A stretch of DNA of 32,000 nt from Geotalea uraniireducens Rf4 (lineage in GTDB: Bacteria > Desulfobacterota > Desulfuromonadia > Geobacterales > Geobacteraceae). Shown piece after piece: positions 13,110 to 28,708 of the stretch. How positions within the stretch are numbered: the stretch's first letter is position 1; each line of letters begins with the position of its first letter. Location of the stretch: contig NC_009483.1 in the NCBI RefSeq assembly GCF_000016745.1, positions 5,070,001-5,102,000 of the forward strand, written 5' to 3'. Position numbers and translations under genes: made by a program. The notes under the pieces are model-generated. The model was not told the origin of the DNA. It did not search any database and saw nothing but the letters and a program-made list of their open reading frames with translations.

Positions 13110-13619
13110 TCAAGAAACTGATAACTTTTGTCTTAACTTTTCAATCTCCTCAGGCGGAAGTCTCCTTCCGACAGTCGGCCAAACTGAAAGCCAGCGCAAC
13201 AGTTCTACTGCATTCACCAGTCCTAATCTATGGGCTTCTTGTACTATCCAGATACTTCCCCGGAAGTCAACCCCCTCTTCCTCGCATCTCTCTCGTAACG
13301 AACGGTCTCCCGCAAGCACCACGCGATCATGTTCCTGAGCATAGCAAACCGTCATCATATCATTGGTGCTAACCCCGCGCCTGCGCATGGCGGTTGCCCT
13401 TTCTGCCAGTTCGAACGAGGTCTCGATAACGGTAATTCCTGAGCGAATGATCTTCTGCACCAAGTCAGGTTGATCTCCGTGCTCGCATTCAACCAGCACG
13501 ACGTCCAGGACCTCGCACGGGGCCAGCTGCGGCAGTACTTCGATTCCCCCGACATACTCAAGGTCAATCAATATGCTGGTATCGGCCAGGAGAATCAAGA
13601 AGGGTCTTCCGAAAGCCAC
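13110..13619 (-). CDS. PIN-like nuclease domain protein (DUF3368-like), putative toxin/effector
   Basis: The 169-aa ORF starts at GTG 13619. An alternative TTG at 13598 forms a TTGA start/stop overlap with the upstream gene. Acidic PIN-type positions are LLADTSILIDL, VLVECE, STNDMM and VLAGDRSL. Confidence 0.65.
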   Translation of the reverse strand: MAFGRPFLILLADTSILIDLEYVGGIEVLPQLAPCEVLDVVLVECEHGDQPDLVQKIIRSGITVIETSFELAERATAMRRRGVSTNDMMTVCYAQEHDRVVLAGDRSLRERCEEEGVDFRGSIWIVQEAHRLGLVNAVELLRWLSVWPTVGRRLPPEEIEKLRQKLSVS

Positions 13620-14662
13620 TTGGTAAGTTCGTTTCTGACTGTGCGGACCGGCTCTCCAAGCACCTCGGCGGCTTTTGAAGTGGTGATTTTTTCCTGGATC
13701 AGGGCTTGATACACCAGCCTGTCGAGACGGCGAAGCGATCCCGGTGGTTTAAGGTCCACTGCCTCGTTTACCTTGCCATACTTGTCATTGAGCTTGGCGA
13801 TTTGCTGGAATGACTGCCTGGAAGAAATTATGTCCAGTTGGGCAGCACGGACCAGAATCGTCCTCATGCTCACGGAGTAGCGAATCTTGATGTCTGCAAG
13901 CAGGGAGTACGGAAGCCAACGGTTACGGTAGGGGTGCAGCTCGGCCTCGACGATATTGCGCGGCAGAATGACCGCCCCGGCCAGATGATTGGCGGCCTGC
14001 TCACGGGGGTCCGTCCTACCGGTTTTCGGATGCATTGAAGTGGGAGTTTGGTACTCCCGCCGATGAAAAATAAGATGGGAGAGTTCGTGAAGCGCGGTAA
14101 AGTATTGTCTCTCCGTACGGTGATTCGAGTTGACGAAAATAACCCCGCCGACTTCTTCCGTGTAGGCGGAAAACCCGGAGACCGTGTCGGGGAGCTGGTG
14201 CAGAAAAATCTTGAGCCCCTTGGTTTCCAGGAGAGAAAGGACATCTCCCAATGGAGCGTCCTCAACACCCAGCCAATCCCTCACCTCATTAGCAACCTGT
14301 TCGACAATATGTTGATCGAACGCATCAAGGGGCCGGGATACGGGGAGATTTGGCAGAACTCCTGCCAACTTCTCGATCTCGGCGTAATCGTAAGCCTTGC
14401 GGGTCAGCAAGCTTTTCAGGGCTGGTGACAGGGTTTCGGTGGCATCAGCGCGGAACAGCAACACCGGTTCAGTCACATTGCCCGTGCCGAGCATTACGTC
14501 GATGGGTACATGCAAAATCTGACAGAGTTTTACCACCTGCTGCATTGAAGGCTGTCGTTCCCCACGTTCCCAGGCGGCTATGGTTTGTCGGGTAACACCG
14601 GCAAGTTCGCCCAAGGCCTCTTGCTTCATACCGGCAAGCTCTCTAAGCTCCCGTAAAATCAT
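13595..14662 (-). CDS. XRE-family HTH fused to an ImmA/IrrE (M78) zinc metallopeptidase domain
   Basis: Track ORF 13595..14698. The likely start is ATG 14662 (MILRELRELAGMKQ), with GGGAGG 7 nt upstream. The HTH reads QEALGELAGVTRQTIAAWERGERQP; the peptidase has HEXXH (ALHELSHLIFH) plus a downstream EQAANHLAGAVILP. Confidence 0.88.
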   Translation of the reverse strand: MILRELRELAGMKQEALGELAGVTRQTIAAWERGERQPSMQQVVKLCQILHVPIDVMLGTGNVTEPVLLFRADATETLSPALKSLLTRKAYDYAEIEKLAGVLPNLPVSRPLDAFDQHIVEQVANEVRDWLGVEDAPLGDVLSLLETKGLKIFLHQLPDTVSGFSAYTEEVGGVIFVNSNHRTERQYFTALHELSHLIFHRREYQTPTSMHPKTGRTDPREQAANHLAGAVILPRNIVEAELHPYRNRWLPYSLLADIKIRYSVSMRTILVRAAQLDIISSRQSFQQIAKLNDKYGKVNEAVDLKPPGSLRRLDRLVYQALIQEKITTSKAAEVLGEPVRTVRNELTKWLSEDPS

Positions 14663-14713
14663 GGGATACCTCCCTTCCTCTTCCTGTCGATCAATCATTG
14701 TGCAAATTATTTA

Positions 14714-14759
14714 TGTTCTATATGTGTAACATGATATCAATAAATAATATGTTTGACAA
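14714..14759 (-). promoter_or_regulatory. Candidate promoter/operator of the XRE-ImmA/PIN operon, overlapping a divergent plus-strand TTGACA
   Basis: The minus strand reads TTGTCA (14759-14754)-17 nt-TATCAT (14736-14731). The palindrome TGATATCA (14732-14739) overlaps the -10, and TGTT-N10-AACA (14714-14731) covers the expected transcription start. The plus strand has TTGACA at 14753-14758. Confidence 0.5.
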
Positions 14760-14963
14760 CCATCAAATGTTATATTATGTATGTTGTGGTCCAATAGAAA
14801 AAAGCCACAAGATATGGGGATATCCTGTGGCCATCCGCAAGCCCGGCGGGGACCGGGCTGCTTGTCAGAGTGCTTTGGAGGCTCTCTATGGTGTTTTTCA
14901 ATATCATAGATGATGACTTTTGGCAAGCCAGGATAACGCGCCCCTTGAAAGGAGACCCTGGTC

Positions 14964-15086
14964 ATGAAAAAGTCAGCACCGCAACGAAACGGCAAGCGAC
15001 TGATTTTCCGCGAATGGCGGACAATCAACGACAAGCTCGTACATGCTTCAGAGTACGGGCTCAAGGCTTGGCCCTTATGGGTTTGA
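14964..15086 (+). CDS. Small hypothetical protein (40 aa), below the ORF-track cut-off
   Basis: The ATG is preceded by AAAGGAGA at a 7-nt spacing. The product is MKKSAPQRNGKRLIFREWRTINDKLVHASEYGLKAWPLWV. I recognise no family. Confidence 0.4.
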   Translation: MKKSAPQRNGKRLIFREWRTINDKLVHASEYGLKAWPLWV

Positions 15087-15156
15087 GCACTTCACCGTGA
15101 GGGGTGGCAACACCCCTCTCAGTTCAGTTCACCAATTTCAAAATGGGAGAAATACC

Positions 15157-15345
15157 ATGGGAAAACATCTTAAACCGGGCAATACGGCACCGGCATCGGC
15201 ACAATATGAAATCGTCGGACCAAGAGGCGGTCGTACAGGACAAGAACGGACTGTGACCAGAGGGGAGCCGCTACCGCCAACTCCGCAGGCCGGTCAGGGA
15301 TATGTCATTGCTGATCGAACGAAGAATAGAGCTGGCAGAAGATAA
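15157..15345 (+). CDS. Small protein resembling the YjzC-like family (62 aa)
   Basis: This is the internal ATG of track ORF 15043..15345, preceded by GGGAGA. The product is MGKHLKPGNTAPASAQYEIVGPRGGRTGQERTVTRGEPLPPTPQAGQGYVIADRTKN. The pattern KPG..AP.SG.Y...GPRGG......V..GE.LPPT recalls YjzC-like proteins, from memory only. Confidence 0.5.
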   Translation: MGKHLKPGNTAPASAQYEIVGPRGGRTGQERTVTRGEPLPPTPQAGQGYVIADRTKNRAGRR

Positions 15346-15351
15346 CAAATA

Positions 15352-15385
15352 CGAAGGGGCAAGCCGTGCAGGCGGATTGCCCCTT
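15352..15385. terminator. Hairpin between the convergent small ORF and res
   Basis: GAAGGGGCAA-14 nt-TTGCCCCTTC: a 10-bp stem with weak T-runs. Confidence 0.5.
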
Positions 15386-15421
15386 CTTGAAACAACGTTC
15401 AATGTGTTCAGGCGCCAGATA

Positions 15422-17998
15422 TCACGAATTGCGTCCCCTCACTGTCGCCCTTATTGCCTCCCAATCTTTATCTTTGGGCATAATGAAAAGGCACTTTCCG
15501 TTACTCCGCTTCTCCCAGAGTTTGCCCAGTTGACGTTTTTCCACGTTCTCCGGCAACACCCAGTCACGGCTGTTCTTGTATTCCACCGCCAAAATCCGGC
15601 CATCCTCCAACTGACAGAGGAAGTCGGGATAAAAACGGTCGCTGCCGGTTTGCAGCGAAAATGACGTCCTCTTGCACTCCACGTTGCGGACCCAGAACTT
15701 CACCCCTTCGAGTTGCGTTGCCAAAAACAGTGCACACTCGAATTCGTCCCCGTTCCCTTTCAGATTGCCGATTTGCGGAAAGAAATGCTTGGGCAGGTCG
15801 GTAAAGCCGCAATAGATCGAGTCATGGGCGTAGCGCCCCTGTTCAAATACGACCTGGCTTCGGTCATTGACGGTAAAGTCTTCCGGCGCGAGCAAGAGGG
15901 TCTGATGCACCTTCTGCATCGCCTGTTTCCTGGCTTCGCCGATCTTTGTCTCCAATGTGTTGCGCAGCCGAAATTTGGCGTACGCAAGTTCTTCCAGCGT
16001 AAAACCGTTGGTTCGCAGCCAATCCACTGCTTTGTTCAGGAAGGCCGCCTTTTCGTCCGGGAGCAGGGTCTCGTCATAGATGTTCCGCTCCAGCCAGGAG
16101 ACAAGATGCACCTGATCCCACCCCGAGTGATACTCGAAAAGGAGCGGCTCCGCCACGCCGGGCTGGAAAGGGGTGAACTTGACCTTTTCCTTGTCCAGGT
16201 ACATCGTGCCGCCTTGGGGCTGCATGCTTGCCTTGCTGAATGTCGTCAGGTCGCAGGGATAATCCAACAGGCTCCAGTCTCCCTGCAACAGATGGGTGGC
16301 TTCGAACGGCTCCCACAAGTCACCTTGGCGGTACTGGAGTTGTGGGACCTTGAAGCGTTCACCCTGTTCTGCCGGTGACTTGGGTGGCACTTTGCGTGGT
16401 GAGCGCAGGCGGACAATGGCCTCACGAACCGCCTCCTTGCCCGCCGGGGTCTGAAAGACATCCTGCAAGGCCTTTACCTGGGTTTCGGTAAAGGTGCCCT
16501 TCAGGGTAATGGAGCCGTTCTCGGGGGTGATCTCGATCTTCTTTGCCAGATTTTCCGGGATGGCCTCTGGCTCGGGCAGTTCCGGCGTACTATAGGTCAG
16601 GCTGTGCTGGTGAGTAAACAGGTCTTCCGTCTGCTGGTCATCCGGGATATTGATCAGCTCCCTGGCCTCCTGCCGTTCGAAGCCGTTGCGTACCAGACCG
16701 TCCTTGAGGCTTTCGACCGTAGCCGCGAAGTTGCTCGACGTCAGGTAGGCATAAGCCATGTTCAGTTCCGGGTGATCCTTTTTTTCGGCGTACGGCAGGC
16801 GCAAAACCCGTCCCAACACCTGTTCCGCCGCCGTGGCCGAGCTGGTGTTGCGCAACGAGCAGAGCACGTAAGCAAATGGGCAGTCCCACCCTTCTCGCAA
16901 CTTATCCACGGTAATGATGTAGCGGAAACGGCAATCCTCGGCCAGAATATCCTTGCCTGCGATCTCGTCAACCGTGCCGGTGGCAATGGCGATTTCATCG
17001 ACAGGAATGCCGAAATCATCCAGCAGCGCCTGCCTGACCTTTTCCGGTATCAGCGTTTCATGGTCGGCGTCTTTGCGCTCCGCCTGGATAAGCATGATCG
17101 GCCGCAGATATCTCTTGCCCGCCGCCCGTTCCGCTTCAGCGGCCTGCTGCAACCGGCCCAGACAGGCAATTGCGTCGCGCAGGGCATCGAGCCAGTTGGG
17201 GCGCTGGACCAGGGTCAGCGGCATCTTGATCATGAATTCAGTATGCAGTACCGATGCGGAGACGCTGTAAAGCACGTTGCTCGGCTGCCAGGTGCGGTCC
17301 GGGGTCGCCGTCAGTTCCAGGATGGCGCACGGTTCGAAACGGGACAGGGTGTCAAAGGCCAGGGGGGTGCCTTGATTGTGGGCCTCATCCACAACGACAA
17401 AGGGTTTGCGCAGCCGCAGCACATCCACCAGCGAGCCATTGCCGCGCACGGCCGGGTCGGTGATCCCCTCGAAGTGCTCCATCAGGCTGCCGTTTTGCTT
17501 GTAGACGCTCAGGCGGCCGGTTTCCTCCTGCTTGAAGGCCTGCATGGTGGCGACGATGATTACGTTCGAACCGTTCAGCACATGGGGCGTCACCCGCAGG
17601 GCTTCCTCGATGTCCAGCACGGTCACTTCTCCCAGCTTCGACGACACCGCCTGGAAGAGAATCGACTGCGGGGCGCGCAGCGCCTTCAAGGTCTGCTCAC
17701 GGATCGGCTCCGACGGCACCAGCCAGAGAGTCAGGCTGAACGGCACATGCAGCAGACTTCGGTTCACCCGTTCAATGGCCATGCCGGCCACCATGGTCTT
17801 GCCGCCGCCGGTGGGGATCCGCAGACAGACGTAGGGTGTCATCTCCAGGTTGCGCAAGGGGCGATAAAACAGCGCCGTGTTGCACCACTCTTGGGTGGTT
17901 GTGGCATAGCTTTCGCGGGGAACTCCGCTCTCCTGGCAGCGATTGAGGAACTTTTCGAACCAATCCAGCGCGTCGAACTGATAACTCTTGAGGATCAT
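15422..17998 (-). CDS. res: Type III restriction enzyme Res subunit (SF2 DEAH helicase + C-terminal PD-(D/E)xK nuclease)
   Basis: Track ORF 15422..18118. Helicase motif I is RIPTGGGKT, motif II VVVDEAHN, motif III LELTATP, and a late motif is TVDKLREGWDCPF. The C-terminal nuclease motif is YPDFLCQLEDGRILAVEYK. The true start is probably ATG about 17998 (MILKSYQFDALDWF); the 40 upstream codons (TTG start) merely read through a REPIN repeat. Confidence 0.9.
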   Translation of the reverse strand: MILKSYQFDALDWFEKFLNRCQESGVPRESYATTTQEWCNTALFYRPLRNLEMTPYVCLRIPTGGGKTMVAGMAIERVNRSLLHVPFSLTLWLVPSEPIREQTLKALRAPQSILFQAVSSKLGEVTVLDIEEALRVTPHVLNGSNVIIVATMQAFKQEETGRLSVYKQNGSLMEHFEGITDPAVRGNGSLVDVLRLRKPFVVVDEAHNQGTPLAFDTLSRFEPCAILELTATPDRTWQPSNVLYSVSASVLHTEFMIKMPLTLVQRPNWLDALRDAIACLGRLQQAAEAERAAGKRYLRPIMLIQAERKDADHETLIPEKVRQALLDDFGIPVDEIAIATGTVDEIAGKDILAEDCRFRYIITVDKLREGWDCPFAYVLCSLRNTSSATAAEQVLGRVLRLPYAEKKDHPELNMAYAYLTSSNFAATVESLKDGLVRNGFERQEARELINIPDDQQTEDLFTHQHSLTYSTPELPEPEAIPENLAKKIEITPENGSITLKGTFTETQVKALQDVFQTPAGKEAVREAIVRLRSPRKVPPKSPAEQGERFKVPQLQYRQGDLWEPFEATHLLQGDWSLLDYPCDLTTFSKASMQPQGGTMYLDKEKVKFTPFQPGVAEPLLFEYHSGWDQVHLVSWLERNIYDETLLPDEKAAFLNKAVDWLRTNGFTLEELAYAKFRLRNTLETKIGEARKQAMQKVHQTLLLAPEDFTVNDRSQVVFEQGRYAHDSIYCGFTDLPKHFFPQIGNLKGNGDEFECALFLATQLEGVKFWVRNVECKRTSFSLQTGSDRFYPDFLCQLEDGRILAVEYKNSRDWVLPENVEKRQLGKLWEKRSNGKCLFIMPKDKDWEAIRATVRGRNS

Positions 17999-18007
17999 GC
18001 AAACTCC

Positions 18008-18183
18008 ACGTCCCGTGGGGACGGTATGAAGATAGCCGGGGAATTCATTCCCCGGTTCATGGAATAAAACAATCATCACGTCACGTACGTGACGTGGGGA
18101 ATTGGTGGGGCGTCTCAAATCCGTGGGGCGTTCAAATCCGTGGGATGAATCCCACGGCTACCGTCAAACGCCCCTCTGGGGCT
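18008..18183. repeat. REPIN-like composite repeat, copy A, occupying the whole mod-res intergenic region
   Basis: A series of hairpins: GTCCC-GTG-GGGAC; GATAG+CCGGGGA-ATTCAT-TCCCCGG; the 16-nt palindrome CGTCACGTACGTGACG; CCGTGGGA-TGAA-TCCCACGG+CTACC; and GCCCC-TCT-GGGGC. It is collinear with copies B and C, plus a ~20-nt internal duplication. Confidence 0.85.
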
Positions 18184-19779
18184 TTATACACCAGTTTTAA
18201 GCTTGTACGGTAATTGCTTGAAGACGATCTCCTCGCGCCGCTGCCGTTCGTGGTCGATGCGGCAGGCCGTGCCGTATATGACTTTCGGCCCGTCGTGGCC
18301 GGGCAGCGCGGCCAGGATGGCGATTGTCAACACATTGCCGCCCCGTTGCGTCTTGTCCTTGAGGATGCCGTTATAGAGGAGATAGACCGCCGTGCCGTTA
18401 TGGACGCCCAATAGCGGGTTGTCCAGGGTGGCCGTGGCGGGCAGCGGCTCGCCGGTTTCGGTGAAATAGACATGCCGGGCAAGATCGGAAAAGCGCACCG
18501 AGGAGCGGATATTGCCCCGCTCGTCAAAGAGCGGTTCGCTCAGTTCGCAGAAGCGGAAACCGCCACCGAGAGCGGGAACTTTCTCGTAACCTTGCGAAAC
18601 CCGCGAGAGTCGTTGTGCAGTGATCTTGCGGCAGATATGTTCGTCCATCTCCACCAGGATAAAGCGGCGGTTACCGCCGTCTGAGGCGTTCTGCGCCAGC
18701 ACGGCATGGCCTGTGGTGCCGGAGCCAGCGAAGGAGTCAAGAATGAGAGCGTCTTTGTCTGATGAGATTTGCATGAGATGGCGAATGAGACGGGTAGGTT
18801 TCGGTGTAAACTTTACCTCCGGCACAAGCGCCCGTAGCTCTTTTGCCGCTTCATCCGTATGCCCGGCGACCTCATGTTTAAGTAGAGACACCGGTATCAT
18901 TCCCTGCTGTATTTCAGATAAGAAATTTTTCAATCTCGGTGTAGAGCTTTTGCCGTCCTTACCCCACCAAATACGATTTTCTTTCTCATTCTTTTCATGC
19001 ACTTCTTTTGACATTGCCCAAACGCGAGTTTCTTTCGGCCAAATTTCTTCTTCAGTATTTCGATTGATGATGGGATAAAAAAGATTTGGTCTTTCACTAG
19101 CAGTATAGCGACAAGAATAATCCATTGATTGCCAAGGGCCACGTGGGTCATTGTCTGGGTTCTTGTATCTTCCCGTCTGGTCAAAAGTCAACGGCAGCAA
19201 ATTCCTTTGAAACTTTGATGACTTGCGATACGCTAGCAATGTTTCATGTAAGTATCCGATGTCTTTAGTGTCAGGTGGCGGTGAATATCGTTTTTCCCAC
19301 GCAAAGGAGCACAAGAAGTTATTTGCCCCGAAAATCTCATCCATCATCATCCGCAGGAAATGCACTTCGTTATCATCAATACTGATGAAAATAGCCCCGT
19401 CATCCCGCAGAAACTCCCGCAGTAGCGCCAGACGCGGGTACATCATACACAACCACTTGTCATGCCGCGAAAGGTCTTCCGCCTCCTTCCCCACGGCCCT
19501 GCCCAACCACTCCCGCATCTCAGGGCTGTTGACGTTGTCGTTGTAGACCCACCCCTCGTTGCCGGTGTTGTACGGCGGATCGATGTAGATGCACTTCACC
19601 TGTCCGGCGTAGTAGGGCAACAGCGCCTTGAGCGCCAGCAGGTTGTCCCCCTGCACCAGCAGGTTGCCGCTGCCGGGATCGCCCACGGAAAGTTCAGGAT
19701 TTTCCCGCAGCAGGTGAAACGGCACTTCGCGATGATGGTTGACGACGGCTTTCTTGCCGATCCAGTCGAGTCTGGGCAT
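18184..19779 (-). CDS. mod: Type III R-M Mod subunit (beta-class N6-adenine/N4-cytosine DNA methyltransferase)
   Basis: The 531-aa product has motif IV IYIDPPYNTGNE near the N-terminus and motif I LDSFAGSGTTGHAV near the C-terminus (IV-TRD-I order). It lies upstream of res on the same strand. Confidence 0.9.
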   Translation of the reverse strand: MPRLDWIGKKAVVNHHREVPFHLLRENPELSVGDPGSGNLLVQGDNLLALKALLPYYAGQVKCIYIDPPYNTGNEGWVYNDNVNSPEMREWLGRAVGKEAEDLSRHDKWLCMMYPRLALLREFLRDDGAIFISIDDNEVHFLRMMMDEIFGANNFLCSFAWEKRYSPPPDTKDIGYLHETLLAYRKSSKFQRNLLPLTFDQTGRYKNPDNDPRGPWQSMDYSCRYTASERPNLFYPIINRNTEEEIWPKETRVWAMSKEVHEKNEKENRIWWGKDGKSSTPRLKNFLSEIQQGMIPVSLLKHEVAGHTDEAAKELRALVPEVKFTPKPTRLIRHLMQISSDKDALILDSFAGSGTTGHAVLAQNASDGGNRRFILVEMDEHICRKITAQRLSRVSQGYEKVPALGGGFRFCELSEPLFDERGNIRSSVRFSDLARHVYFTETGEPLPATATLDNPLLGVHNGTAVYLLYNGILKDKTQRGGNVLTIAILAALPGHDGPKVIYGTACRIDHERQRREEIVFKQLPYKLKTGV

Positions 19780-19816
19780 AACGGTTATTTACCTTCCATT
19801 GCTGCTTTTCGCTTAC

Positions 19817-19974
19817 GTCCCGTAGGGACAGATTGACGGTAGCCGGGGAATTCATTCCCCGGTTCATGGGACCATAACGTTTCCCACCGTCGCGTACGCG
19901 ACGGATGAATGGGGGATACATCCTCAATCCGTGGGATAAATCCCACGGCTACCCTCAAACGCCCCTGACGGGGC
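19817..19974. repeat. REPIN-like composite repeat, copy B
   Basis: GTCCC-GTA-GGGAC; GGTAG+CCGGGGA-ATTCAT-TCCCCGG (19838-19862); palindrome CGTCGCGTACGCGACG (19888-19903); CCGTGGGA-TAAA-TCCCACGG+CTACC (19929-19953); GCCCC-TGAC-GGGGC. Confidence 0.85.
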
Positions 19975-19987
19975 TTTACCCATTTTC

Positions 19988-20142
19988 GTCCCGTAGGGAC
20001 AGATTGACGGTAGACGGGGAATTCATTCCCCGGACAACATCGCAATGTTTCCCCCCGTCACGTACGTGACGGATGAATGGATGATGCCTCTCAAATCCGT
20101 GGGATAAATCCCACGGCTACCGTCGCACGCCCCTGACGGGGC
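19988..20142. repeat. REPIN-like composite repeat, copy C
   Basis: Same module order as copy B: GGTAG at 20009-20013, hairpin 20015-20032, palindrome CGTCACGTACGTGACG at 20056-20071, inverted REP 20097-20121 and a terminal hairpin 20129-20142. It ends 12 nt from the transposase stop. Confidence 0.85.
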
Positions 20143-20153
20143 TTTGAATATCA

Positions 20154-20605
20154 TTATCCCCATACATACCGTTCATCATATTCAACGCCGTGTTTGCGGA
20201 GAAAATGCACATACTCCTCCTGAAACGACTTTGTACGGTGATGTTCACGCTGTCCTTCGATATAGCGCACGGTATCGGCAATCTGCGAAACCCCGACAGT
20301 GAATGCTCCATAACCATCCTGCCAGGCAAAAGCAGCCATATCGTTGTCTGTCTCATGAATCCATCGCGACGACGCACCCTTGAGCAATTGCACTGCCTTG
20401 CTGATCGGCATGCTTGGCGGCATCGCCAGAAGTATGTGGATATGGTCGTCGTATCCTCCAACCTGCAAGGCTTTCATTGCGTTCGTACGAGCTATGCCGC
20501 AAGGTATTCCCAGATACGAGCTTCCTTCTGCGGGGTAAGCCACGGTTCGCGGTTTTTCGTACTGAATACGATATGGTAATGCAATGCGGTGTATGTATTG
20601 GCCAT
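20154..20605 (-). pseudogene. IS200/IS605-type Y1 (HUH) transposase of the REP-associated (RAYT) kind, disrupted by a 1-nt frameshift
   Basis: The N-terminal piece from ATG 20605 reads MANTYTALHYHIVFSTKNREPWLTPQKEARIWEYLAA-stop (stop at 20492-20494) and carries the HUH motif HYH. The remainder is in another frame (track ORF 20154..20720): ...GIARTNAMKALQVGGYDDHIHILL...KGASSRW...WQDGYGAFTV...VRYIEGQREHH. One extra G near 20495-20503 would restore IWEYLGGIARTN. Confidence 0.8.
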
Positions 20606-20699
20606 TCTGGTTGCCTTGTTCACTCGTCGCCACGCGACGATTGTAGGAGGGCTTCTTCCGTCCCGGCGATGAATCGCCCTCTCTTATCGAAATTTCAAT

Positions 20700-20731
20700 A
20701 AAAAAACGCCTGGCGAACAATTTTCCAGGCG
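20700..20731 (-). terminator. Rho-independent terminator of ftsK
   Basis: The minus strand reads CGCCTGG-AAAATTGTTCG-CCAGGCG-TTTTTTT, 18 nt after the ftsK stop. Confidence 0.8.
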
Positions 20732-24782: not shown

Positions 24783-25006
24783 TTCTTAACCTTTTGCCTG
24801 TAACGCAGCAAAAACCAAAATAGAAAACCTTTGAACCGCAAAGGACCCAAAGGGCCTAAAAAGCAAAGGGCGCAAAGAAAGATAATATGTTTCAAATTCA
24901 ATCTTTGGGTTTTGAGCTTGGTTACGGCTTTACTTTGCGTTCTTCGCGTCTTTGCGGTCCAGAGACTGGTTTGTTTGTCTGCGTTTTTGGTGTCGTGTCG
25001 GTTAGC

Positions 25007-25405
25007 TCACTGTTTCGCCGTTTGCTTCACCAGCTGGGCGATCTTTCCTTCGCAGCGGGCAATCCATTCCTTGCCGGGGGAAGTAAGACCGCGTACAGCG
25101 TAAAAAGAGCTGCGCAGAGAGCGGTAGGCTATCAGGGCCTTATCCATGTCGCCTGCCTGTTCATAGTGTTCGCCGATGCTCCACAGTTTTTCGGCAGCGC
25201 GTTCCACCAGGTCGCTGCCGGGGGTATACATGTGAATCGACGATTCATAACCGGCGATGCCGGCAATGTAATCGCCGGCAGCCAGCGCTTTTTCACCCTT
25301 GTCGAACTGGGTATGCTGACGATAGAGGGTGTTCCCCCAGATGAGGACTATTGCGATGACGGCGATAAGCGCGATGTTGACGGCGATGGTCTTTGCTTTT
25401 TCCAT
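25007..25405 (-). CDS. Membrane-anchored hypothetical protein with a TPR-like repeat
   Basis: Track ORF 25007..25441. The likely start is ATG 25405 (MEKAKTIAVNIALIAVIAIVLIW), preceded by AGGAAA. It has a single TM segment followed by a helical repeat region. Confidence 0.6.
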   Translation of the reverse strand: MEKAKTIAVNIALIAVIAIVLIWGNTLYRQHTQFDKGEKALAAGDYIAGIAGYESSIHMYTPGSDLVERAAEKLWSIGEHYEQAGDMDKALIAYRSLRSSFYAVRGLTSPGKEWIARCEGKIAQLVKQTAKQ

Positions 25406-25412
25406 AAGTTTC

Positions 25413-25598
25413 CTATGCCAGAAAAAATCCGGGTACGGCAATGAGCAGCGCGCCCACGAGGGCAGCGATCAATCCTGCCAGTGCGAGGAGGGCGGCCAGG
25501 ATGTCAAAGGGGCTCCGCAGCCGATGGGCAGCCGGCAGGCCCCAGGCAATGGCGGCAATGCCGACGACAACCATGGCACAATATAGAATCAGCATCAT
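25413..25598 (-). CDS. Small two-TM membrane protein (61 aa)
   Basis: It lies within track ORF 25413..25694. An ATGATG start sits 1 nt after the plsC TGA, with GGAG upstream. The product is MMLILYCAMVVVGIAAIAWGL...LLALAGLIAALVGALLIAV. Confidence 0.5.
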   Translation of the reverse strand: MMLILYCAMVVVGIAAIAWGLPAAHRLRSPFDILAALLALAGLIAALVGALLIAVPGFFLA

Positions 25599-25599
25599 A

Positions 25600-26298
25600 T
25601 CACTCCAGCCCTGCGGCGATAGCATTTCTGACCTGCTCAAGCAATTCCGGATGCTCTTTGCCATTGTATGTGGCGGTGGTGACCGGTTCGGCAAAAGTGA
25701 TACTGAGTATTCCCGGATAGAGTTCCAGGCGGTTACGCGGGTTTATCCGCATGCTGCCGTTGATGGTGAACGGGACGATCGGCACGCCGGCCTTCACCGC
25801 CAGGAGGAATCCCCCTCGCTTGAAAGGGAGCAGGTTGCCGTCCGCGGTGCGGGTCCCCTCCGGGAAAACAACCACGCTGCTGCCGCTCCTGATTCGCGCC
25901 GCCGCTGCATTCATGCTTTTCAGGGCGCGACGGCCGTCACTCCGGTCGAGGGGGATATAGCCGGCGCGGTGCATGGCGCTGCCGAACAAGGGGACCCGGA
26001 ACAGCTCCTCTTTCGCAATCCATGAAAATCGCCGTGGGATTGCCAGGGACAATGCCAGGATGTCGAAATTCCCCTGGTGGTTTCCCATGTAGATGACCGG
26101 TCCGTCGGTGGGTATCTTTTCCACGCCATCCACCCGGACTTTTATCCCGGCAAAGAAAAGTCCCCACCGGCTCCAGAACCTGGCGCATTTATGGGCAAAG
26201 GCGCCGGTAGCATCGAAGAAAGTGCCGCAAACAGCCATTGCACTGCACATTAAGGTGAACGGGACAAAAAACAGCAGATAAATACGCGCACGTAGCAT
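25600..26298 (-). CDS. plsC: 1-acyl-sn-glycerol-3-phosphate acyltransferase
   Basis: The 232-aa product has the acyltransferase motifs NHQGNFD (HX4D) and VVVFPEGTR, plus an N-terminal TM segment. Confidence 0.9.
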   Translation of the reverse strand: MLRARIYLLFFVPFTLMCSAMAVCGTFFDATGAFAHKCARFWSRWGLFFAGIKVRVDGVEKIPTDGPVIYMGNHQGNFDILALSLAIPRRFSWIAKEELFRVPLFGSAMHRAGYIPLDRSDGRRALKSMNAAAARIRSGSSVVVFPEGTRTADGNLLPFKRGGFLLAVKAGVPIVPFTINGSMRINPRNRLELYPGILSITFAEPVTTATYNGKEHPELLEQVRNAIAAGLE

Positions 26299-26446
26299 AA
26301 ATCAACATAACTCCGAAAATTATCCGAGTTAAAGTACTGTTTTTTATCGGCAGAGTCAAACCAAATATCGCTTGCCTAAAAGGCGCATTTTCTATAGACT
26401 GCCTGCATTCAGTGGTGTGTGAAAAAAGGTGATAAGGAGTTGCCCT

Positions 26447-26896
26447 ATGGCCAGTCTCAATAAAGTTATGCTGATAGGAAACCTCGGCAAGGACCCTGAA
26501 GTGCGTTACACCGCCTCAGGAACGGCGGTTGCTAGTTTTTCCCTGGCAACCAGCGAGAAGTTCAAGAACAAGTCCGGTGAGTGGGAAGAGAAAACCGAGT
26601 GGCACAACGTCACCCTCTGGGCCCGCCTGGCGGAGATTGCCGGCGAATACCTGTCCAAAGGGAAGACCGTATATATCGAAGGACGCCTTCAGACCCGCAA
26701 GTGGCAGGACCGTGACGGCAAAGACCGCTACACCACCGAGATCGTCGGGGAGAAGATGCAGATGCTTTCCGGCAAGGGTGAAGGGGGCGGCGGTGGCCGC
26801 CAGGGTGGCGGCAGACCCAGCAGCGATGAGCACGGCGGCGGTGGCCCGAGCTACGAAGAGCCGGTGTTCAATCCCGATGATGATATTCCGTTCTAA
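26447..26896 (+). CDS. ssb: Single-stranded DNA-binding protein
   Basis: Track ORF 26429..26896. The start is ATG 26447 ([22 protein letters not shown]), preceded by AAGGAG. It has an OB fold, a Gly-rich linker and the acidic tail DDDIPF. Confidence 0.96.
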
Positions 26897-26935
26897 CCGC
26901 TCATATGCGGCGTGTCAGGTTAATGACATTTCAAA

Positions 26936-26960
26936 AAGGCAACCCTCCGGTTGCCTTTTT
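26936..26960 (+). terminator. Rho-independent terminator of ssb
   Basis: AAGGCAACC-CTCC-GGTTGCCTTTTT. Confidence 0.85.
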
Positions 26961-27085
26961 GCTATCCGGGATACGGATTGACGCCTTGCCATACAATTTA
27001 ACTCATGCTAAAAATTTCTTGCAAAAATAAAAATATATAAACATAGTTATTTTTTTGACCTGAGTAAATGCGAGGGGTAGAACAA

Positions 27086-27343
27086 ATGCATATCCGCAAA
27101 AAAATTCTCGATTACGAGTATCAAGAGGTGCTGGACGTGAAGACCCGCGAGCTGATCCGGGTCGGTTGCGCGGTAGCCGTCGGCTGCCCCACCTGACTGA
27201 AAAAGCACTTCGCGGTCGCGAAGGAAGCGGGGGCAACCCGGGCCGAATTGAAAGAGGCCATTGCCTACGGCATCATTGCCCCGTCCGGCCGGGCGAAGAA
27301 CTTTGCCGTGGGGATGGCTGAGGAACTTGATCTGGAGCTGTAA
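27086..27343 (+). CDS. AhpD/carboxymuconolactone-decarboxylase-like small redox protein with in-frame UGA (probable selenocysteine at codon 37, motif C-P-T-U)
   Basis: My own translation is MHIRKKILDYEYQEVLDVKTRELIRVGCAVAVGCPT[TGA 27194-27196]LKKHFAVAKEAGATRAELKEAIAYGIIAPSGRAKNFAVGMAEELDLEL-TAA. GAGGGG sits 8 nt upstream of the ATG. One continuous frame crosses the TGA, and the CMD-family pattern spans both halves. A hairpin follows the TGA. Confidence 0.8.
27197..27228 (+). promoter_or_regulatory. Candidate bacterial SECIS element
   Basis: CUUCGC-GGUC-GCGAAG (27208-27223) starts 11 nt after the UGA. The loop G residues are about 20-21 nt from the UGA, and a short extra lower stem (GC/GC) is possible. 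Confidence 0.65.
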
Positions 27344-27346
27344 GCC

Positions 27347-28708
27347 TTGCTGAAGATGCCGTTTTCGACTACATTTTTTACCGGCCGACCGACGAAGCGT
27401 GTATCCATCCGCCGTAACGTCATCAACCTATCGCTGCCGGTGCTGCTCTCATCGCTGTTTCAGCGGCTCGTTTCCATTGTCGACATCTTCATGGTCGGCG
27501 GGCTCGGCGCGGCGGCCATTGCTGCCACCGGCCTCGGCCAACTCCTCATATTCGTGGTGATGACGGTGTTCTGGGGGTTGGCCACCGGCACGACCGTCGT
27601 AGTTGCCCATCTATGGGGAGCCGGCGGCCGTGCCGAGGCGCGCCGGGCAGCCTTTGCCGCCTGTCTTGCCTGTGCCGGCATGGCGGTCGCTGCAAGCTTT
27701 CTCGGCTGGGCTTTCGGCGACGAACTGGCCCGCTTCCTCGGGGCAAAGAGCGATGTACTGGCCTATGCCGCCGGCTATATCCGGCTGGTGTTCCTCTGGT
27801 TCGCCTTTACTGCCGGCCTCAACATCCTCTCCGCCATCATGCACGGCATCGGCAACACGCGGACCCCCATGGAGGGGATCATCCTCGTCAACGTCCTCCA
27901 TATACTGATCGCCTATCCGCTCATTTACGGAAAGTTAGGCCTGCCGCAGCTGGGAGTTACCGGCGCCGCCTATGCCATCAATCTTTCGGAGATGTGCGGC
28001 TTTCTCTACCTTTTGTTCCAGGCTTTGCGAAAGAACTATATCAAGATCGGCAAGCCGGACCTGCACCTGTTCCGCAAGGTGTGGCGGGTCGGCTACCCGG
28101 TGGCGCTGGAACGTATCGCCCAACAGTCGGGCCAGCTTTTTTATTCCAAGTTCATCATCAGCTACGGCACCGCCGCCTATGCCGCGCACCAGATCGGGCT
28201 ATCCATCGAATCCCTCTCGTTCATGCCGGGTGCCGGGATGGGGATTGCCGCCTCTACGCTCATGGGACAGGCGCTCGGGGCAAAAAAGATCAGCCGCGCC
28301 CGGATCAGCCACATGGAGGCGTTGAGGCTGGCGATCATGGTCATGGCGGTCATGGCGCTCCTCTTCTTCTTTATCCCGCACCTGCTGATCGGCCTGTTCA
28401 CCCATGATCCGGCCGTCATCGAAAAGGGGTGTGTATTCTTGCGGCTGGTGGCCTTTGCCCAGGTGCCGCTGGCCATTTCCTTCGTCTACGCCGGGAGCCT
28501 GCGCGGGACAGGCGACACCCACTACGTATTTCTCGTCACCCTTGCCGCCATGTGGGGGATCAGGGTGCTTATCTCCTATATTGCCGCCGTACCGCTCCAT
28601 CTCTCGCTCTACATGGTCTGGGGGGTGTTCCTCCTCGACTGGCTGTTCCGCGCCGCAGCCTTTGCCTGGCGCTACAAGCAGCGCGACCTGCACCAGATAA
28701 TCCTCTGA
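27347..28708 (+). CDS. MATE family efflux transporter
   Basis: The 453-aa, roughly 12-TM protein shows the MATE-typical N-terminus (INLSLPVLLSSLFQRLVSIVDIFMVGGLG) and an internal duplication. The start is TTG 27347 or ATG 27356, 4-13 nt after the stop of the putative selenoprotein gene. Confidence 0.88.
   Translation: MLKMPFSTTFFTGRPTKRVSIRRNVINLSLPVLLSSLFQRLVSIVDIFMVGGLGAAAIAATGLGQLLIFVVMTVFWGLATGTTVVVAHLWGAGGRAEARRAAFAACLACAGMAVAASFLGWAFGDELARFLGAKSDVLAYAAGYIRLVFLWFAFTAGLNILSAIMHGIGNTRTPMEGIILVNVLHILIAYPLIYGKLGLPQLGVTGAAYAINLSEMCGFLYLLFQALRKNYIKIGKPDLHLFRKVWRVGYPVALERIAQQSGQLFYSKFIISYGTAAYAAHQIGLSIESLSFMPGAGMGIAASTLMGQALGAKKISRARISHMEALRLAIMVMAVMALLFFFIPHLLIGLFTHDPAVIEKGCVFLRLVAFAQVPLAISFVYAGSLRGTGDTHYVFLVTLAAMWGIRVLISYIAAVPLHLSLYMVWGVFLLDWLFRAAAFAWRYKQRDLHQIIL

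Follow-up and report, generated by a model that had tools for sequence, protein, structure and literature searches.

A GSU3128-family selenoprotein gene of Geotalea uraniireducens Rf4 with a SECIS-like hairpin inside its active-site codons

Introduction

A carboxymuconolactone-decarboxylase-like selenoprotein was predicted in G. sulfurreducens by Chaudhuri and Yeates (2005). A "distant AhpD homolog" family was then listed by Zhang et al. (2006) for G. sulfurreducens as well as for G. uraniumreducens (Geotalea uraniireducens), where it is one of eight selenoproteins, the other seven being two FdhA, SelD, a Prx-like protein, a thioredoxin, a proline reductase and a thiol:disulfide interchange protein (PMC1794560). 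The entry for this family in a 2022 review gives the motif CxxU, COG0599 and the accession AAR36519.2. Selenoproteins of the AhpD-like or CMD-domain type with a CxxU motif have also been known from metagenomes since 2005 (Zhang et al. 2005; Zhang and Gladyshev 2008).

Bacterial SECIS elements in general have a stem of 6–8 bp and a loop in which a G, some 20 nt past the UGA, is conserved (PMC4605307). The minimal element of E. coli is a 17-nt stem-loop separated by 11 nt from the UGA; its determinants, a bulged U17 and the loop nucleotides G23/U24, are specific to the SelB of E. coli. On the protein side, the proton relay of AhpD-type enzymes is formed by Glu118, Cys130, Cys133 and His137 in AhpD of Mycobacterium tuberculosis, and by Glu36, Cys48, Cys51 and His55 in PA0269 of Pseudomonas aeruginosa (PMC3141380). 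A further AhpD-like protein of P. aeruginosa, RclX, is needed for tolerance of HOCl and HOSCN.

Here we describe a member of the "distant AhpD homolog" family in a 32,000-nucleotide stretch of the G. uraniireducens Rf4 genome (hereafter the window, to which all coordinates refer), and compare it with these systems.

Results and Discussion

A single reading frame across an in-frame TGA

The selenoprotein gene lies on the forward strand at 27086–27343 and comprises 85 codons, an assignment drawn from its translation, from NCBIfam and Pfam profile matches and from the pN/pS values reported below. A single frame runs from ATG 27086 to the TAA at 27341–27343, and the sole stop inside it is the TGA at 27194–27196 (codon 37). 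The conceptual product is MHIRKKILDYEYQEVLDVKTRELIRVGCAVAVGCPT*LKKHFAVAKEAGATRAELKEAIAYGIIAPSGRAKNFAVGMAEELDLEL, the asterisk standing for the TGA, and the region around codon 37 translates as ...VGCPT*LKKHFAVAKEAGATRAELKEAIAYG... The start proposed in the preliminary description, an ATG at 27086 with a good Shine-Dalgarno sequence, agrees with our reading: a Shine-Dalgarno-like GAGGGG is present at 27072–27077, 8 nt 5' of the ATG, and the initiator methionine of the homologues aligns with this codon. A second in-frame ATG is located upstream, at 27068, and has been taken as the start of Gura_4398 (ABQ28541.1), which GenBank carries as a 42-aa "hypothetical protein" running from that ATG to the TGA, that is, as an N-terminal fragment. 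The earlier statements that the TGA breaks the open reading frame and that automated annotation drops the gene are thus borne out, the former by the ORF lists, which break off at the TGA, and the latter as far as GenBank is concerned.

Membership in the GSU3128 family

With U replaced by C in the query, the product scores 156 bits against the NCBIfam equivalog NF041047, "GSU3128 family (seleno)protein" (cut-off 110), and the alignment joins product residues 1–82 to profile positions 1–83 of 84. The AhpD/CMD-like layout attributed to the product on first inspection is likewise recovered by Pfam: the joined sequence reaches 54.6 bits against PF02627 (CMD; cut-off 23), a threshold that neither half attains when scored alone. 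The match to the TIGR00778 core domain amounts to 39.2 bits against a cut-off of 27.8. By contrast, the score against TIGR00777, the model for AhpD proper, is 14.1 bits against a cut-off of 191.95, which places the product outside that subfamily.

The closest described system is therefore the GSU3128 family, or "distant AhpD homolog" (COG0599/YurZ; AAR36519.2 in G. sulfurreducens), to which the full-length equivalog match assigns the protein. Members of this family are about 84 aa long, contain a C-P-T-U motif and are found in the Geobacterales and Desulfuromonadales, and the window protein agrees on each point. No difference of substance separates it from the family, and it is 73–87% identical to the orthologues of other species. 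The selenoproteins known as AhpD-like 1 (COG2128) and AhpD-like 2, or CMD-domain, from marine metagenomes have in common with it a CxxU within a CMD/AhpD-type domain; they are nevertheless separate subfamilies, from which the GSU3128 equivalog match sets the window protein apart. Since a curated model exists, the selenoprotein family was already known, and the description of the gene as hidden does not hold in view of that model and of the papers of 2005 and 2006. The selenoprotein gene is real, ordinary and already described, a member of its family having been listed for the species in 2006. Four further proteins encoded in the window are identical to the G. uraniireducens Rf4 proteins ABQ28525, ABQ28528, ABQ28535 and ABQ28536.

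Conservation of the TGA codon

Protein searches returned 14 full-length relatives (P0001–P0014) together with dozens of half-proteins, which in the catalogues either end in ...GCPT or start with MKKHF. Column 37 is occupied by Trp in P0001–P0013 and by a genuine Cys in P0014, in the context CSEC. The DNA encoding P0006 has TGA at this column, so that the Trp found there does not correspond to a TGG codon and most likely arose because the DNA was translated with a code that assigns TGA to Trp.

A scan of species-representative genomes yielded 181 relatives, of which 80 loci were kept, all of them from Geobacterales or Desulfuromonadales. Addition of metagenome loci brought the number of close TGA-type orthologues to 116, window included. 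Codon 37 is TGA in every one of these 116 recovered orthologues, and the stretch from the TGA to the downstream hairpin is free of indels in all of them. A metagenome scan seeded with the Cys-containing P0014 found close relatives that were all TGA forms. Within the 80 loci, Cys34 and the His41 codon CAC are both invariant (80/80). The preliminary description had proposed checking whether homologues align across the TGA column with Cys or Sec, and this is what we observe: the TGA is shared by 116 loci, and a close homologue, P0014, has Cys at that position.

Comparison of the window with its orthologues gave pN/pS values of 0.153 for codons 8–36 and 0.157 for codons 47–73. The equality of the two values indicates that purifying selection is the same on the frame beyond the TGA and on the one before it. 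Searches confined to the window found none of the genes selA, selB, selC and selD there, and no tRNA either.

A SECIS-like hairpin under selection at the RNA level

The 6-bp hairpin with a GGUC tetraloop that had been noticed 11 nt after the UGA is exact in all respects. It is located at 27208–27223 on the forward strand (CTTCGC-GGTC-GCGAAG; in RNA, stem CUUCGC/GCGAAG and loop GGUC), consists of a perfect 6-bp stem closed by a 4-nt loop, and starts exactly 11 nt past the TGA. This hairpin is the minimum-free-energy structure of the segment 27194–27250, and its assignment as a SECIS element draws further on frozen synonymous sites and on covariation. Counting the U of the UGA as +1, the stem reaches from +15 to +30 and its loop consists of G21, G22, U23 and C24, a geometry that agrees with that of bacterial SECIS elements in general.

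Taken alone, as a single sequence, the hairpin is no more than suggestive. The folding energy of the 57-nt stretch, computed for the single sequence, was no better than that of shuffled versions (z = -0.02). Among the 1029 TGA triplets of the window (both strands), two are followed exactly 11 nt downstream by a 6-bp Watson-Crick stem with a 4-nt loop, and 14 are when the spacer is relaxed to 8–14 nt and the loop to 3–8 nt. An Rfam E-value scan of 26900–27500 gave no SECIS match, a 16-nt hairpin carrying little information for a scan of this kind; the same scan returned weak, spurious matches to SraB and RNAI, which were driven by the terminator hairpin of ssb. It is the comparative data that make the hairpin decisive.

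The hairpin covers codons 41–46, CAC TTC GCG GTC GCG AAG (His41-Phe-Ala-Val-Ala-Lys46). In these six codons pS falls to 0.03, as against 0.59–0.69 in the flanks, and codon entropy to 0–0.29 bits, as against about 0.4–2.2 bits in the rest of the gene. The same amino acids are far less constrained in their codons at other positions of the gene, where Lys and Phe reach 0.8–1.0 bits and Ala 1.1–1.9 bits. Pairing was counted over 96 distinct sequences, giving 672 cells: standard pairs are formed in 100% of them, and compensatory changes occur at two pairs, one in the stem and one at the position that closes the loop, in 10 cells. None of 500 shuffles matched the observed pairing or covariation score, and sliding the structure by 1–3 columns reduced pairing to 39–64% with zero compensatory change. 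One such set of changes is seen in the loci L040 and L114, whose stem reads CCUUGC/GCGAGG: a compensatory replacement of U-A by C-G is accompanied by a change of C-G to U-G, at the cost of the substitutions F42L and K46R.

The loop is more variable than the stem. Across the 116 loci it is GGUC in 83 (81 of these with the standard stem), GGGC in 11, GGCC in nine, CCUG in seven, AGGU in five and GGCU in one, so that the third base varies among U, G and C. Loop positions 1 and 4 are always able to pair (G:C, A:U, C:G or G:U). The CCUG loop characterizes a clade (L084–L088, L090 and L091) that lacks G at the first two loop positions.

Of 26 Cys-type relatives more distant than P0014 (33–51% identity), a single one forms the stem, which is absent from the other 25. 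It should be borne in mind that the peptide F-A-x-A-K by itself forces four of the six stem pairs, so that the evidence proper to the RNA level comes down to five synonymous positions plus a small number of compensatory events, each of which may represent a single clade. Selection is acting on the hairpin at the RNA level, and it is linked to the TGA.

Likeness to the fdhF element of E. coli

A resemblance to the apical part of the fdhF SECIS of E. coli had been suggested in the preliminary description. The fdhF sequence used for the comparison was found under fdhF in 5419 of 5426 E. coli genomes, and the element it contains reads UGA, 11 nt, GGUUGCA-GGUC-UGCACC. The likeness is close: both elements are located inside the coding sequence and share the 11-nt spacer, six pairs and a GGUC loop with G and U at its apex. 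They differ in that the window element has neither the bulged U nor the extended lower stem. Because the bulged U is absent, the window loop (G21 G22 U23 C24) is 1 nt closer to the UGA than that of fdhF (G22 G23 U24 C25). The window hairpin thus possesses the loop GU and no bulge, and the combination of bulged U17 with G23/U24 that characterizes the E. coli type is not found in it.

Other readings of the TGA

Three other readings of the TGA have to be weighed. The gene could be a nonsense-inactivated CMD-family pseudogene whose downstream frame is a decaying remnant, as might be gathered from GenBank, where only fragments are annotated (Gura_4398, 42 aa), and from ORF lists that break at the TGA. 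The same TGA is found in all of the 116 TGA-type loci, the 48 downstream codons are intact, and a decaying remnant would not retain a constraint past the TGA (0.157) that matches the one before it (0.153); this reading has next to no probability in our estimation. Nor is it at all likely that translation truly stops at 27194 to yield a peptide of 36 aa, with a 48-aa product perhaps made separately, the hairpin being an attenuator or terminator. Protein catalogues do contain many separate halves, and a terminator scan flags 27223–27208, followed by a T-rich tail, on the minus strand. Yet neither half scores as a CMD domain without the other, the catalytic His41 and the C-terminal helices come after the TGA, and the codon that follows it is CTG, which the ORF tool used here does not treat as a start; no listed ORF begins at that codon. 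As for the terminator, no minus-strand gene ends at 27223–27208, the T-run is due to Lys codons whose wobble base varies, and the hairpin is tied to the TGA, being missing from nearly all Cys-type relatives.

The remaining possibility is that the UGA is read as Trp or Cys by near-cognate decoding, or under a reassigned code, instead of as Sec. The W at column 37 of P0001–P0013 speaks in its favour, but the TGA in the DNA of P0006 deprives that W of a TGG codon, and the column aligns with a redox Cys and not with Trp. TGA also serves as the ordinary stop of eight of the 16 Pfam-supported genes of the window, which argues against a genome-wide reassignment, and the organism is a documented user of Sec (PMC1794560). 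We therefore regard non-Sec read-through as very improbable as the normal decoding of this codon, although some misincorporation of Cys or Trp at the UGA may occur under selenium limitation. Taken together, the conservation of the TGA, the pN/pS values and the ordinary use of TGA as a stop rule out a pseudogene, a genuine stop and an alternative code. We conclude with high confidence that 27086–27343 is the G. uraniireducens Rf4 member of the GSU3128 family, an 85-residue single-domain selenoprotein of the AhpD/CMD fold, in which UGA specifies Sec and the hairpin serves as the SECIS element.

Active site and fold

The product displays the spacing E22-x11-C34-x2-U37-x3-H41, identical to the proton-relay spacing E-x11-C-x2-C-x3-H of AhpD. 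By motif spacing, Glu22 (codon at 27149–27151, forward strand) corresponds to Glu118 of the M. tuberculosis AhpD relay, and His41 (CAC, 27206–27208, forward strand) to its His137; the third base of the His41 codon is at the same time the first base of the SECIS stem. Cys34 (TGC, 27185–27187, forward strand) is the first residue of the CxxU and aligns with the first Cys in the solved structures 3bey and 7y4r. Both Glu22 and Cys34 are invariant in our alignments A2 and A3, and His41 is invariant in A2 and nearly so in A3. The whole CxxC of 3bey (E = 3e-8) and 7y4r (E = 1e-7) aligns onto C34-P-T-U37, in keeping with the initial proposal that Sec takes the second position of a CxxC motif.

For structural comparison, the modelled protein was the Cys-form homologue P0014 (68% identical) and not the window protein itself. 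The model is helical, with a pLDDT of 84, and its helices 19–33 and 36–48 flank the CxxC. In Foldseek searches with this model the top 41 PDB matches all belonged to the CMD/AhpD family, with TM-scores of 0.49–0.59 and a best E-value of 5e-3. Foldseek E-values were weak overall, as is expected with an 85-residue query.

The AhpD-like peroxidases AhpD (M. tuberculosis) and PA0269 (P. aeruginosa) share with the window protein the proton-relay spacing and a helical active-site hairpin. In contrast to these enzymes, the window protein is about half the size (85 aa versus 144–177 aa), has Sec in place of the second Cys, and carries Thr36 at the position of His132/Tyr50. No ahpC or peroxiredoxin gene turned up among the scanned ORFs of the window, and this, together with the TIGR00777 score of about 14 bits versus 192, shows that the window protein is not AhpD proper.

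The best matches in both sequence and fold are the small hexameric CMD proteins RclX (7y4r, P. aeruginosa) and O27018 (3bey, M. thermautotrophicus), with E-values of 1e-7 to 3e-8, TM-scores of 0.56–0.59 and 31–42% identity over the Foldseek alignments. These are single-domain proteins with a CxxC at the same column; they differ from the window family in having Cys and not Sec and in being 10–25 residues longer. The regulation by RclR that is a feature of RclX is not seen at the window gene. The motif and the modelled fold suggest that the window protein most likely acts as a selenol/thiol oxidoreductase in oxidant defence.

Genomic neighbourhood

Upstream of the selenoprotein gene, ssb (26429–26896) is followed by a terminator-like hairpin, AAAAAGGCAACC-CUCC-GGUUGCCUUUUU, at 26933–26960 on the forward strand, and then by an AT-rich spacer. 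This hairpin, recognized by reading the sequence, would mark the upstream boundary of the transcription unit; it is absent from the output of the consensus terminator scan. Downstream, on the same strand, there is a gene for a MATE family efflux transporter (27356–28708; Pfam MatE, E = 4.5e-63), whose start is ATG 27356 in RefSeq and TTG 27347 in GenBank. The distance from the selenoprotein gene to the pump gene had been given as 4 nt and needs correction: the gap is 3 nt if the TTG is used and 12 nt if the ATG is. With either gap between the TAA and the MATE start, co-transcription of the two genes is predicted to be likely.

The suggestion of a redox-protein/efflux operon stands in part. Of the 70 related loci that have enough downstream sequence, 30 have an orthologous MATE gene next on the same strand, and other lineages have other neighbours, for example a GlnE-like gene upstream in about 17 loci and DUF116, fmt and def downstream. 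As the MATE gene is found in only 30 of these 70 loci, the operon idea fits a subclade and not the family. A universal operon partner was considered and rejected, given that neighbours vary (MATE in 30/70, GlnE-like in about 17).

Proposed decoding and catalysis

By analogy with the established bacterial mechanism, the UGA at 27194–27196 would be decoded as selenocysteine, with the hairpin in the His41–Lys46 codons (27208–27223) acting as a putative minimal bacterial SECIS. It is predicted to tether the complex of SelB, GTP and Sec-tRNA(Sec) at the ribosome while the UGA occupies the A site. The predicted enzyme would cycle through a Cys34-Sec37 selenenylsulfide, with Sec37 as the putative attacking nucleophile and Cys34 as the putative resolving residue, and it may thereby detoxify a peroxide or another oxidant, or re-reduce a partner protein.

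A more speculative proposal, which we consider unlikely, has two separate points. In about 40% of Geobacterales species, this one among them, the selenoprotein and the MATE pump that begins 3–12 nt past it would make up a two-gene module dedicated to detoxification, and the SECIS of the family would be a 7-bp stem with only two exposed nucleotides. In such a module the selenol enzyme would act on an oxidised or electrophilic compound, by reduction or conjugation, and the MATE pump would then export it. A 7-bp stem would account for the covariation between loop positions 1 and 4 and would point to a recognition by SelB that relies less on a loop G, the CCUG clade being a case in point.

Significance

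The comparative data leave existing knowledge of selenoproteins unchanged, and the practical value of the present analysis is one of annotation. The GenBank record of strain Rf4 carries this gene's N-terminal part as a 42-aa hypothetical protein, and metagenome protein catalogues contain dozens of half-proteins as well as forms in which the Sec position shows a false Trp. The gene also provides a clean textbook case of a 16-nt SECIS element overlaid on the codons of an active-site helix, where constraints on the RNA keep synonymous sites frozen in over 100 species.

Pairing and variation in the SECIS hairpin

Loop positions 1 and 4 of the GGUC tetraloop that caps the SECIS (window 27214 and 27217) were found to covary across the orthologous loci L002-L116. 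Among the 96 distinct rows of the alignment, these two positions are occupied by G:C in 86, by A:U in 5, by C:G in 4 and by G:U in a single row, with no mismatch in any of the 96. Such covariation, uninterrupted by mismatches, suggests that a seventh pair closes a two-nucleotide apex of the SECIS.

The hairpin varies among relatives. One clade of TGA-containing orthologues, all of them metagenome loci (L084-L088, L090 and L091), carries a CCUG loop on an unchanged stem, located approximately 20-23 nt past the TGA, and the peptide encoded by its hairpin reads HFALAK. This loop lacks a G at positions 1-2, whereas bacterial SECIS models usually require one. In two further orthologues (L040 and L114), the stem itself is altered to CCUUGC/GCGAGG; all six pairs are kept through compensatory change, at the cost of two amino-acid replacements (F42L and K46R). 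A 6-bp hairpin (UUUCGC-CGAA-GCGAGA) is also retained in a Cys-type relative (NCLPCLRYHFAEARK, 51% identity; L121:1573-1611), where its offset after the TGC is the same as that of the SECIS after the TGA. This hairpin may be the remnant of a SECIS left behind by a Sec-to-Cys change, or else a by-product of the F-A-x-A-R/K peptide.

Genomic surroundings

In window 26929-27092, Rfam gave weak hits to RNAI and to SraB, the latter at E = 0.024. The signal comes from the terminator hairpin of ssb (26933-26960) together with the AT-rich spacer; both hits score far below the gathering level and were judged spurious. Two plus-strand ORFs of 185 and 194 aa (window 24887-26025) have no Pfam match; the second of these is probably, at least in part, not a gene, since an acyltransferase gene with good support (25600-26298) overlaps it on the other strand. 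Farther away, defence and mobile-element genes follow one another on the minus strand of window 13110-20720, flanked by housekeeping genes and coding for a PIN-domain protein, an HTH plus Peptidase_M78 protein, a ResIII helicase (898 aa), an N6/N4 DNA methylase (531 aa; type III restriction-modification-like) and an IS200-like Y1 transposase.

Annotation of the gene and its homologues

Gura_4398, a 42-aa hypothetical protein in GenBank (window 27068-27196), corresponds to the N-terminal fragment of the selenoprotein, begun at an upstream ATG. The start of the MATE gene also differs between records, being TTG 27347 in GenBank (453 aa) versus ATG 27356 in RefSeq (450 aa). Full-length homologues from public metagenome protein catalogues (P0001-P0013) display Trp at the Sec position; in P0006, the only one of these checked at the DNA level (L082:3001-3255), the codon in this column is TGA. 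It is likely that the contigs were translated with a code reading TGA as Trp, and such false-Trp catalogue entries could mislead surveys of Sec and Cys.
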